Source of the DNA: Pseudonocardia sp.
GTDB taxonomy: Bacteria; Actinomycetota; Actinomycetes; Mycobacteriales; Pseudonocardiaceae
DNA length: 64,000 bases
Assembly (NCBI RefSeq): GCF_036500625.1
Contig: NZ_DASYBQ010000012.1
Strand: one strand, 5' to 3'
Shown here: in pieces, positions 26,642 through 32,291 of the stretch
How positions within the stretch are numbered: the first letter of the stretch is position 1
Layout: each line of letters starts with the position of its first letter
Notes under the pieces: generated by a model
What the model saw: only the letters and a program-made list of their open reading frames with translations
Told to the model about the DNA's origin: nothing
Database searches by the model: none
Program-made: the position numbers and the translations under genes

Positions 26642-27220
26642 CTACGTGTGGGTGGCTACCGGGGGCAGGTCGGTGAGCGGGGCCGGGGGCCACTGGTCGG
26701 GGTGCGTGCCGAGGGTGTTGAGCTGTCGGACTTGCAGGGCGCACCAGGGTGAGACTCTGATCGTGTCGCTGATGACGCCCTCGGAGAGCTCTGTCCAGTC
26801 GATCCACCGGGCGTTGTTGACCTCCGAGGGGTTGAGTCGCGGCTCGGCGTTGGTTCGGGCGGCGAGGACCGGGCACATCTCGTTCTCGGTGATTCCGTTG
26901 TCCATGCTGGCGCGGTAGCGAAAGCGTGGCAGCACGAGGGTGAGCTGGGCGGTGGCGATGCCCAGTTCGCCGTGCAGGCGGCGGGCGACCGCGTCCAGGA
27001 GTGCCTCGCCTGGCGCGGGGTGTCCGCAGCAGCTGTTCGTCCAGACCCCTGGCCAGGTCTTCTTGGACAAGGCGCGCTGGGTGAGGAGTAGTTGATCGTT
27101 GTTGTTGAACAGGTAGCAGGAGAACGCGAGATGCAGCGGAGTGCGGTGACCGTGCACGGTTGCCTTGTCTGCTACTCCGGTCGGTCGGCCCGATTCGTCG
27201 AGGAGTACGACCTGTTCCAC
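26642..27220 (-). CDS. idi: Isopentenyl-diphosphate delta-isomerase (type 1)
   Basis: VVLLDE, VH...TPLHLAFSCYLF, QRA..K.TWPG.WTNSCCGHP, ENE.CPV and SPW motifs. RBS GAAAGG. Confidence 0.95.
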   Translation of the reverse strand: MEQVVLLDESGRPTGVADKATVHGHRTPLHLAFSCYLFNNNDQLLLTQRALSKKTWPGVWTNSCCGHPAPGEALLDAVARRLHGELGIATAQLTLVLPRFRYRASMDNGITENEMCPVLAARTNAEPRLNPSEVNNARWIDWTELSEGVISDTIRVSPWCALQVRQLNTLGTHPDQWPPAPLTDLPPVATHT

Positions 27221-27268
27221 CGGTGACCTTTCTGTCTGTACGGGGTGCGGGTGTGCCGGACCGGGCGG

Positions 27269-28393
27269 TTACCGGTCGCGGTGGGTGAGCAGCGCAGCCA
27301 GCGCACACAGCGTGCCGGCGGCCTCGGCGCTGGGCTGGGCGCGTTGCAGGTGTTCCAGCGCGCGGTCGCGGAGTCGTTCGGCTTGGGTCTGGCTGTAGGT
27401 GCGTCCACCCGCTTGATCGATCAGCTCCGCGATGTGGGTGAAGTCGGTGTCGCAGGTGATCTGGTTGGGTTGGTAGCGGATCCGCAGCTGCGCCGCGGCC
27501 GCGGTGTCGGTGCTCAGGGCAGCCACGACGGGTAACGACTTCTTCGTGTTCCGCAAATCCGAATAGGCCGGTTTCCCGGTGAGCCTCGGGTCGCCCCAGA
27601 TGCCCAACAGGTCGTCGATGTGTTGGAAAGCCAGGCCGAGCGCCACCCCGAAGCGGCGCAGCGCCTCGATCCGCTCACCGGTGGCGCCGGCGAACAGTGC
27701 ACCGAGTGCGCAGCAGCAGCCCAACAGGGCCGCGGTCTTCCCCCGGGCCATGTCCTCGCACTGGGCAAGCTCGACGTCGTCGCGGCCCTCGAAGCTGATG
27801 TCCGCGTGTTGGCCGGCGATCAGCTCGACCACGGCCGAGGAGAGCCAGCGGGCCGCTCGCGCCGCGCTGGAGTGCTCGCTGGTAGCCAGTACGTGGAAGG
27901 CTCGGGCCAGCAGAGCGTCGCCGGCCAGGATCGCCGGGCCGGAGCCGAACATGGTCCAGGCGGTGGGCCGGCCCCGGCGCGTGGTGTCCCTGTCCATCAC
28001 GTCGTCGTGCAGCAGGGAGAAGTTGTGGATCAACTCCACCGCGACCGCCGCGGGCAACGCCACGGTCGCCTCGCCGCCCACGGCCTGGGCGCAGGCCAGT
28101 ACCAGCGCGGGCCGGATCGCCTTACCCTGCCCCACGCCGTGGCCCGTGGAGCTGCTACCCACCGGGTTGCCACCGGCGATGGTGCGCGACGGCGTGGGTG
28201 GGTCGATCCAGCCGAAGTGGTAGTCACAGATCTCTCGTATTGACTCCGGCAGTGCGGCCACGACCGCGCGCAACTCCGGTTCGACCCGTTGTCGGGTCTC
28301 GGTGAGCACCGCCGAGGCCGTGCGCGCCTCGGCGGAGTTCGCGCCGGCGGTGACGGCCGTGGCGCTGGAGCCGGTTGTCGGTGTGCTGGCCAT
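27269..28393 (-). CDS. Short-chain polyprenyl diphosphate synthase (FPP/GGPP synthase type), encapsulin-operon associated
   Basis: GKAIRP, HNFSLLHDDVMD...RRGR (FARM), GQHAD, KTAAL, FQHIDDLLGIWGD (SARM) and KKSLPV motifs. Confidence 0.92.
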   Translation of the reverse strand: MASTPTTGSSATAVTAGANSAEARTASAVLTETRQRVEPELRAVVAALPESIREICDYHFGWIDPPTPSRTIAGGNPVGSSSTGHGVGQGKAIRPALVLACAQAVGGEATVALPAAVAVELIHNFSLLHDDVMDRDTTRRGRPTAWTMFGSGPAILAGDALLARAFHVLATSEHSSAARAARWLSSAVVELIAGQHADISFEGRDDVELAQCEDMARGKTAALLGCCCALGALFAGATGERIEALRRFGVALGLAFQHIDDLLGIWGDPRLTGKPAYSDLRNTKKSLPVVAALSTDTAAAAQLRIRYQPNQITCDTDFTHIAELIDQAGGRTYSQTQAERLRDRALEHLQRAQPSAEAAGTLCALAALLTHRDR

Positions 28394-30761: not shown

Positions 30762-30800
30762 CACACTCGATCCTTTCCCCGCGCGTGGGCCGGGCAGGAC

Positions 30801-32291
30801 CTACCGTCGCTTGGCGGTGCCGCCACGCCGTTGCGCCGGCGGATCGGCGGCCTCGGCCGGTAGCTGCCGACCTATCTCGGCGTGTTCGAGCATGCCGATC
30901 GCGTCGGGCACCAATACCGCGGCGGAGAAGTAGGTCGAGACCAGATACGACATGACCGCCTTCTCATCGATGCCCATGAACCGCACGTTCAACCCCGGCT
31001 CGTACTCATCGGGCAGCCCGGTCTGGGTCAACCCGACCACTCCCTGGTTGTCCGCCCCGGTCCGCAGCACCAGGATCGAGGAGGTGCCGTGCTCGGTCAC
31101 CGGGATCACCGGACACGGCAGGATGGGCACGCCGCGCCACGCGGGTGCGCTGTGCTCGCCCATCGGCACGCTGTCGGGGTAGATCCCGCGCCGGCTGCAT
31201 TCGCGGCCGAACGCCGCGATCGCGCGCGGGTGGGCCAGGAAAAAGCGCGAGTCCCGCCGCCGACACAACAGTTCGTCGAGATCGTCGGGGGTGGGCGGTC
31301 CCTCGACCGGGGCCAGACGCTGGGAGTAATCCACATTGTGCAGCAAGCCGAATTCCGGGTTGTTGATCAGCTCGTGTTCTTGGCGTTCGCGCAGCTCGGC
31401 GATGGCGAGTTTGAGCTGGTGTTCGATCTGGTTCATCGGTTCGTTGAATAGATCCGCCACCCGTGAATGCACTCGCAGCACCGCCTGCGCGACCTGCAGC
31501 TCGTACTCCCTCGGTGATCTCTCGTAGTCGACGAACGTGGAGCTCAGCACCGGCTCACCCGAATGCCCCGCCGCGACCTGCAGCGAGGCTTCGCCACCTC
31601 GCCCACGCGCCTGGCCCGCCATCGCCGAGAACCGCCGTAGGTGGGCCTGCAGCGACGGCGACTGCTCGACCGCGGTTTCGAATTCCGCGCGCGGAAGCAC
31701 CAGCACGGTGCACGCGGTCGCCGCGGTCACAGTCGTGTGCCAGGTGGCATCGGAGTCGGTCAACGCGGTCGCGCCGAAATAGTCCCCGTCGGCGAGCACA
31801 CCAAGAACCTGATACTGGCCGTAACGGTTGGGCCCCGAGCGGGTCAGCCGACCGTGCGCGATGACAAACACCTCATCCACCGCCGCCCCGGCTTCTACCA
31901 CCGTCACCCCGGAGTCGATCTCGCGTTGGGCGAACCGGCCCGCCAGCCCTTCCAGCACGTCGGCGTCGTCATAGCCGCGCAGGGCGGGGAACTCGGCGAG
32001 CTCGGCGGGGATGATCGTGGCGGCATCGGCGGTCTGCGCCACGTCGATGCGCCCGTCACCCACCGCGTAGGACACCCGCCGGTTCACCCGGTACGTACCG
32101 CCCTTGACCTCGACCCAGGGCAGAATCCGCTGCACCCACCGGTTGGTGATGCCCTGCATCTGTGGTGGCGTCTTGGTCGTGGTCGCCAGATTCCGCGCCG
32201 CGGCGGTCCCCAGAGCCGTGGGCACTTGACCATTGCGCCCCGCACCGTTCTGCGACTGCGCCTCCTGCTCCGAGCCTGTGTCCACCGACAT
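30801..32291 (-). CDS. Family 2B encapsulin shell protein (HK97-type capsid with inserted cNMP-binding domain; EshA-like)
   Basis: [25 protein letters not shown]...LPWV.V.GG.YRVNRR, internal cNMP-binding domain, FVDYE..PREYEL, LHSRVADL.N.P.NQ, FGLL.N, G.RTG....GVVGL and [13 protein letters not shown] motifs. RBS GGAGGGG. Confidence 0.92.

Follow-up and report, generated by a model that had tools for sequence, protein, structure and literature searches.

Encapsulins of Family 2B are separated from those of Family 2A by an inserted domain with the cyclic nucleotide monophosphate (cNMP)-binding fold (hereafter, the CBD). Among the operons of this family, terpene cyclases have been catalogued in 904, prenyltransferases in 900 and the two together in 165, and isopentenyl diphosphate (IPP) isomerases are enriched in the cyclase operons (PMC8346489, 2021); the cyclase-plus-prenyltransferase arrangement is listed as an operon type, in which there may be one shell gene or two (PMC12407261). 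Cyclases resembling the geosmin synthase GeoA occur in 299 Family 2B systems, and the GeoA of Myxococcus xanthus enters a Family 2B shell by means of two peptides that act redundantly, as tested by mutation; actinobacteria mostly encode geoA without a neighboring shell gene (bioRxiv 10.64898/2026.07.21.739788). In the present study, we analyze a 64,000-nucleotide stretch of DNA from an actinobacterium, Pseudonocardia sp. (NCBI RefSeq assembly GCF_036500625.1, contig NZ_DASYBQ010000012.1; hereafter, “the window”), which carries, in this order on the minus strand between positions 32291 and 26642, genes for a Family 2B shell protein, GeoA, a short-chain trans-polyprenyl diphosphate synthase (PPT) and a type 1 isopentenyl-diphosphate delta-isomerase (IDI). 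We consider it quite likely that the four genes form a Family 2B encapsulin operon with a single shell, dedicated to geosmin, in which GeoA is packed and PPT and IDI are co-expressed suppliers of its precursors. Because GeoA encapsulation has already been shown, and both the cyclase/PPT operons and the IDI enrichment have been catalogued, the novelty claimed for the locus in the original prediction is much smaller than it appeared: what the locus provides is a compact actinobacterial case of a type of nanocompartment described only recently, not a new type.

The M. xanthus system, with its shell proteins MxEnc1 and MxEnc2 and its GeoA (bioRxiv 10.64898/2026.07.21.739788), resembles the window locus in having a Family 2B shell with an external CBD and in the adjacency of shell and geoA genes. 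It is myxobacterial rather than actinobacterial, however, and has two shell genes downstream of geoA, whereas the window has a single shell gene upstream; the M. xanthus cluster as described is without PPT or IDI, both of which are present here, and a closed-pore state has been seen only in its two-component shells, as opposed to the one shell gene of the window operon. The shell of Streptomyces griseus (Sg Enc/EshA; PMC11550324; structure 9bhu), which houses a 2-methylisoborneol (2-MIB) synthase, is the closest solved shell and shares with that of the window a tryptophan in the CBD, four residues of the cargo pocket and an 11-aa motif in the N-terminal arm (N-arm), but this synthase is a single-domain enzyme that carries its loading domain at the N-terminus, and the partner gene encodes a geranyl diphosphate (GPP) methyltransferase, not PPT or IDI. 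The cyclase-plus-prenyltransferase operons (PMC8346489; PMC12407261) likewise unite shell, cyclase and PPT in one cluster, but this type has been catalogued only in silico, and the exact order of the window occurs in no other sampled organism. In cyanobacteria, the cNMP-binding-domain genes cnbA and cnbB also adjoin the odorant terpene synthase genes for geosmin or 2-MIB (PMC12159092), with two such genes rather than one and without PPT or IDI. We found no experimental description of the shell-geoA-PPT-IDI layout in the searchable literature, so that the original prediction is still correct on this point, even though encapsulation of GeoA has since been shown in M. xanthus.

Family searches agree with the gene identities, strand and spacing that had been proposed: all four open reading frames (ORFs) lie on the minus strand at the predicted positions, and the gaps between shell and geoA (39 nt), geoA and PPT (7 nt) and PPT and IDI (48 nt) are exact. 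The shell gene (30801..32291, 496 aa) begins with an ATG at 32291 preceded by the ribosome-binding site GGAGGGG, geoA (28401..30761, 786 aa) with an ATG at 30761 preceded by AAAGGA, and the IDI gene (26642..27220, 192 aa) with a GTG preceded by GAAAGG; between them lies the PPT gene (27269..28393, 374 aa). The ribosome-binding sites, all of which had been described as clear, are so for three of the four genes; PPT has a weak one (GGACG), as might be expected if its translation is coupled to that of geoA. Fifteen nucleotides after the IDI stop codon comes the end of a convergent thioesterase gene. In the entire window, the shell, cyclase and PPT genes occur once each, as a search for second copies of them returned none, and there are no isoprenoid genes besides those of the operon. 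The 478-nt intergenic region 5' of the shell gene (32292..32769, minus strand), which by its position we presume to contain the operon promoter and 5' untranslated region, is not conserved beyond this organism's own population and contigs. Terminator-like sites, of which we saw none between the four genes, are no more frequent than chance in our scan, which is therefore uninformative on co-transcription. From homologous systems, we infer that the four genes are transcribed together.

The four genes are real and under purifying selection. An identical shell protein is encoded on two metagenome contigs together with the same four genes, and four further metagenome contigs from the Joint Genome Institute (JGI) carry the locus at ~ 98% nucleotide identity with all four genes intact. 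Compared with the ~ 98%-identical strain variant, the ratio of nonsynonymous to synonymous substitution rates (dN/dS) is 0.26 for the shell, 0.35 for GeoA, 0.12 for PPT and 0.08 for IDI, and it is these low ratios, together with the intact locus in four other metagenomes, that lead us to this conclusion. A 309-aa shell gene without the CBD, annotated in two of the variants (L171 and L172), proved to be a gene-caller artifact, as tblastn recovers all 496 aa in L171; the shell gene of L172 is interrupted by the contig end.

The shell protein scores 713 bits against the NCBIfam model encap_f2b (cut-off 400) and 426 bits against the Pfam SrpI-like family (PF19307), with the C-terminal 250 aa forming the HK97 shell domain. 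Its CBD (residues 123-210; 31662..31925, minus strand) matches cNMP_binding (PF00027) at 54 bits (cut-off 27.5). The alignment to the solved S. griseus 2-MIB shell 9bhu is free of gaps and scores 616 bits, and all four counterparts of the hydrophobic residues that lie under the cargo density in that structure (L264, L285, F430 and Y441; PMC11550324) are conserved, as L272, L293, F438 and Y449. The closest relatives of the shell, at 72-84% identity, come from uncultured soil Actinomycetota, including a metagenome-assembled genome (MAG) of Trebonia, and Streptomyces shells are ~ 60% identical. By analogy with homologous systems, the protein would self-assemble into a T = 1 icosahedral shell. An Rfam match to RF02735 (Sernc350, an antisense small RNA of Saccharopolyspora) on the plus strand (31726-32232; 66 bits, gathering score 50) runs opposite the 5' half of the shell gene. 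It probably reflects conserved coding sequence rather than an RNA gene at the locus, although eshA-like genes could have an antisense transcript.

Gating of the shell by cyclic nucleotides, as had been proposed, appears unlikely from the sequence of the CBD. Its Trp184 aligns with W176 of the S. griseus shell, at the position of the arginine that binds the phosphate of cyclic AMP (cAMP), and this Trp-for-Arg exchange has been linked to a lack of cAMP binding (PMC11550324). The S. griseus shell did not bind cAMP by several assays and the activity of its enzyme was unaffected by cAMP (PMC11550324), and no cAMP binding was reported for the M. xanthus shell (bioRxiv 10.64898/2026.07.21.739788). 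It is the tryptophan at this position, combined with these negative binding results for two homologous shells, that makes us doubt the proposed control.

GeoA contains two Terpene_syn_C_2 stretches in one chain (Pfam), 32% identical to each other. The N-terminal domain scores 528 bits against the S. coelicolor geosmin synthase 5dw7 and has the canonical motif NDLFSYQRE, the C-terminal domain has DDYYP and NDVFSYQKE, and the metal-binding NSE triads of both domains are intact. Two 11-aa cargo-loading peptides (CLPs) can be recognized, CLP1 at residues 344-354 in the interdomain linker (29700..29732, minus strand) and CLP2 at residues 731-741 in the C-terminal tail (28539..28571, minus strand); the published consensus, GP[NT]GLGTSAAR, is likewise described for linker and tail (PMC8346489), and the motif stands at the same two positions in 22 shell-linked GeoA homologues. 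As both peptides are present and the shell has kept its cargo pocket, GeoA is probably the cargo of this shell, and the original reading of the locus as a geosmin nanocompartment probably holds. Judging from homologous systems, GeoA would convert farnesyl diphosphate (FPP) to germacradienol and geosmin. Past CLP2, the protein extends for a further 45 aa (residues 742-786; 28401-28538, minus strand), a tail much longer than other GeoA tails, whose end (G-x-G-[IV]-RDTVRLGR) is common to the closest GeoA relative, in locus L083, in the frame of GeoA. This tail end may represent a third, degenerate loading repeat.

The PPT belongs to the polyprenyl_synt family (PF00348, 208 bits) and lies in the same operon as the Family 2B shell gene, two genes downstream of it. 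Its next-best NCBIfam model, after the family 2 cargo model discussed below, is the geranylgeranyl diphosphate (GGPP) synthase IdsB (331 bits), and its closest solved structure is 3nf2 of S. coelicolor (239 bits), on whose product we found nothing usable in the literature searched. The first Asp-rich motif region reads FSLLHDDVMD, with Phe at position -5 and a DDxxD without insertion; by the classical chain-length rule, this combination fits a C15-C20 enzyme. With IdsB as the next-best model and this pattern in the chain-length region, it is the context, namely the neighboring GeoA and the homologous systems, that points to FPP as the product. For the PPT start there are two candidates, an ATG at 28393, 7 nt past the geoA stop, and an alternative ATG at 28441 whose use would create a 41-nt overlap with geoA; since the GeoA frame is conserved with L083 at the end of the tail, 28393 is favored. 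The stretch before the first helix is accordingly 27 aa (43 aa from the alternative start) and is also short in the closest relatives, so the protein differs from the prenyltransferases described as putative cargos, whose disordered N-terminal domain spans 50-100 residues (PMC8346489). No CLP-like motif was found in PPT, just as no loading motif has been found in any encapsulin-associated prenyltransferase (PMC8346489), and the loading of a prenyltransferase into a shell is not shown in the literature we searched. A 15-aa loop insertion after HFGW was considered as an internal loading peptide and rejected, its sequence and length varying among relatives.

IDI, a Nudix-fold enzyme, scores 251 bits against NF002995 (cut-off 127) and 174 bits against structure 3hyq, with its segments NSCCGHP and ENEMCP aligned to NSVCGHP and ENEVCP; these segments hold the catalytic Cys and Glu, which are conserved. 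The alignment to the IDI structures of E. coli and Salmonella begins at residue 2, and the 192 aa of the protein compare with ~ 190-200 aa in the best 120 homologues listed, which include those of ordinary cultured genomes. Neither a CLP-like motif nor a terminal extension was found in it. Since the enzyme has the length of ordinary IDIs and no loading extension, it is best interpreted as an accessory enzyme of the cytosol that is probably not loaded. From general knowledge of the pathway, a role in rebalancing IPP and dimethylallyl diphosphate (DMAPP) is plausible.

To determine how common this layout is, we ran tblastn with the four window proteins against ~ 170 related loci in three sets: the 80 genome loci most similar to the window shell, the 80 metagenome loci most similar to the window PPT, and the contigs that carry the nearest homologues of the shell and of IDI. 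The order shell-geoA-PPT-IDI, for which a survey had been suggested, was recovered in the organism's own population (L001, L002 and L171-L174) and in no other organism among these loci; the exact order is rare. The closest shells stand with geoA alone (L003, L006-L010 and L164-L168) or, in L169, with a 2-MIB synthase and a methyltransferase. In L005 (9706-13955), the shell, a 2-MIB synthase and a GPP methyltransferase are followed by a type 1 IDI at the cluster end. L083 (190-4988), the locus of the closest GeoA and PPT, reads methyltransferase-IDI-GeoA-PPT, where the methyltransferase is a GPP methyltransferase, an arrangement that suggests a cluster for 2-MIB and geosmin combined. Both clusters come from related uncultured actinobacteria and include a type 1 IDI (58% identical). 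Other orders found were shell-geoA-shell-PPT, shell-shell-geoA-PPT, shell-PPT-geoA and, in one further arrangement, shell-geoA-geoA-PPT with a second shell gene further downstream; shell-PPT alone is the commonest pattern among the PPT relatives. From these varied partners and orders, we conclude that the components are shuffled among related clusters, with IDI recurring in the odorant clusters of this lineage.

Putting these elements together, we propose that the shell protein would form a 60-subunit (T = 1) icosahedral shell of ~ 27-29 nm, with the CBD-fold domains outside, above large two-fold pores, where they would not serve as cAMP sensors. GeoA would be loaded through its two redundant peptides, in the linker and the tail, into the hydrophobic pocket formed by L272, L293, F438 and Y449 at the interior three-fold axes, and would there turn FPP into germacradienol and then geosmin. 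PPT would make the prenyl diphosphate substrate, most parsimoniously FPP, either in the cytosol or as a second cargo, and IDI would adjust the IPP:DMAPP ratio, almost certainly in the cytosol. The small diphosphate substrates and geosmin would cross the two-fold pores.

Several observations weigh against this proposal. The alignment of GeoA to NF041168, the NCBIfam model for family 2 cargo terpene cyclases (f2_encap_cargo3), is full-length (residues 4-742 on model positions 1-735) and yet scores 1163.4 bits, below the cut-off of 1200; similarly, PPT scores 444.7 bits against NF041169 (f2_encap_cargo4, family 2 cargo polyprenyl transferase), below the cut-off of 450. CLP1 departs from the consensus, with V for L and AG for SA. 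The Asp-rich motif of the GeoA N-domain (residues 90-95; 30476-30493, minus strand) is DDHFLQ instead of the expected DDHFLE, and PPT looks GGPP synthase-like by the classical rule. Our promoter scan of the locus detected no sigma-70-type consensus.

The alternatives differ mainly in which enzymes would enter the shell and what they would make there. The most ambitious of them, and the one put forward in the original prediction, has IDI, PPT and GeoA all packed around one shell that channels IPP to geosmin and is gated by cyclic nucleotides at the CBDs. The four genes do share one tight operon, PPT comes near its NCBIfam cargo cut-off, and shells with several cargo types have been raised as a possibility (PMC11550324, PMC8346489); on the other hand, IDI is of ordinary length without an extension at either terminus or a loading sequence, PPT has a short N-terminus without a motif, no loading of a prenyltransferase is on record in the literature searched, Trp184 replaces the essential Arg, both characterized homologous shells fail to bind cAMP, and the closed pore was seen only in two-component shells, unlike the one shell gene here. 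Co-encapsulation of several enzymes and cyclic-nucleotide gating thus both fare poorly, and we regard this complete version as very improbable. A narrower form, in which GeoA and PPT are both cargo, FPP is made and used inside, IDI stays outside and cyclic nucleotides exert no control, is doubtful but deserves more weight: the PPT start follows the geoA stop by so few nucleotides, the most similar PPT genes directly follow or overlap shell genes in most metagenome loci, the score is just short of the cargo cut-off, and cyclase-plus-prenyltransferase operons are a recognized type. Against it stand the missing loading motif in this PPT and in every encapsulin-associated prenyltransferase, the variability of the extra loop after HFGW, and the lack of an experimental precedent in the literature searched.

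The identity of the product raises a separate question, as the E-to-Q exchange in the Asp-rich motif and a GGPP synthase-like PPT could together mean an altered or inactive first cyclization, or a terpenoid other than geosmin. Glu or Asp closes the motif in all 29 other matches from the fetched loci (28 DDHFL[ED] and one DDHFVE), so that among 31 motif matches DDHFLQ is confined to this population, and it is retained in the ~ 98%-identical strain variant; from the sequence, the exchange may alter the metal binding, activity or product of GeoA, and a search of the literature for the role of the Glu in DDHFLE gave nothing usable. The Phe at -5, the DDxxD and the IdsB model would fit a C20 product. 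However, the main Mg2+ ligand of class I cyclases is the first Asp of this motif, the remaining catalytic motifs of both GeoA domains are canonical, the N-domain is close to the S. coelicolor geosmin synthase, dN/dS indicates constraint on GeoA, and FPP is an obligatory intermediate of GGPP synthases; we therefore find the absence of geosmin hard to credit. Finally, the CBD protein might be an EshA/Cnb-type cyclic-nucleotide-binding regulator that sits beside terpene genes and forms no compartment, as the names of homologues in several sources would have it (“CRP-like cAMP-binding protein” or “Crp/Fnr family transcriptional regulator”). The protein has no DNA-binding domain, its C-terminal 250 aa are the SrpI-like HK97 shell domain, and homologues so named have been solved as icosahedral shells (9bhu, 9bix and 9bje), which leaves this explanation with almost no weight. 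The operon with GeoA packed in a single shell, and with PPT and IDI as co-expressed suppliers, is thus the reading that we retain.

One feature of the locus may bear on how the cargo is recognized. In the six-frame translation of the 64-kb window, the strict pattern LGT[SA]AAR has exactly two occurrences, one as LGTAAAR in the shell N-arm (32193-32213, minus strand) and the other within CLP2 of GeoA (28539-28559, minus strand), compared with a mean of 0.015 occurrences in codon-shuffled windows. In the N-arm, LG[TS]xxxR is found in the same register, mostly as LGT[AS]AARN, in 89 of 120 shell homologues, and the S. griseus shell has it as well; it is conserved in cyclase-type shells and degraded in the xylulose-kinase-type shells of S. 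lydicus (SLDTAAAR, SLSTAAAR) and in Family 2A shells (ALGDxAARQLA). The N-arms of the M. xanthus shell shut the two-fold pore via Arg24 (bioRxiv 10.64898/2026.07.21.739788), which may be the Arg of this motif. We found no mention of the resemblance between N-arm and cargo peptide in the searchable literature. Based on the sequences, the cargo peptides may mimic the shell N-arm; alternatively, the two may coincide in their use of a small Gly/Ala-rich motif. A bolder hypothesis would have PPT co-loaded with GeoA by an unrecognized signal to give a minimal two-enzyme nanoreactor, and would also have the N-arm LGTAAAR compete with or mimic the binding of GLGTSAAR, which would couple the state of the N-arm and pore to cargo occupancy; we think this combination unlikely.

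The surroundings of the operon are ordinary actinobacterial chromosome unrelated to terpenes, with an ABC transporter, an acetyltransferase, a glyoxalase and a WYL helicase nearby and, further out, MetRS, an RpfB-like protein, a pyrroloquinoline quinone (PQQ) operon, MshB and prfB-ftsE-ftsX-smpB-tmRNA. MshB, an enzyme of mycothiol synthesis, and a match to the actinobacterial FtsX model, along with the nearest loci, assign the organism to uncultured Actinomycetota. Directly upstream of the operon and on the same strand, a gene at 32770-34437 encodes a 555-aa protein that has no Pfam match, contains a GNHDWYDG-type metallophosphoesterase-like motif and hydrophobic segments, and is found only in the organism's own contigs. 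The PQQ biosynthesis operon (42244-45233, minus strand) includes pqqB and pqqC by NCBIfam and a radical-SAM/SPASM gene (Pfam) that is probably pqqE; a 115-aa ORF between them could be pqqD. The G+C content of the window is ~ 70%, in line with the genome, and falls to 54-58% in an islet at ~ 3500-5700, whose minus-strand ORFs (3598-4077, 159 aa; 4112-5650, 512 aa and regulator-like by eye) were likely acquired horizontally.

Geosmin is both a major soil odorant and a taint of drinking water, and its encapsulation has been shown very recently, in one myxobacterium. The current picture of Family 2B systems is unchanged by this locus. With one shell gene, one probable, doubly tagged cargo and two supply genes, it offers a convenient construct for questions of prenyltransferase loading and FPP channeling, and either the co-loading of PPT or a coupling between N-arm and cargo would, if true, be new for Family 2B encapsulins.

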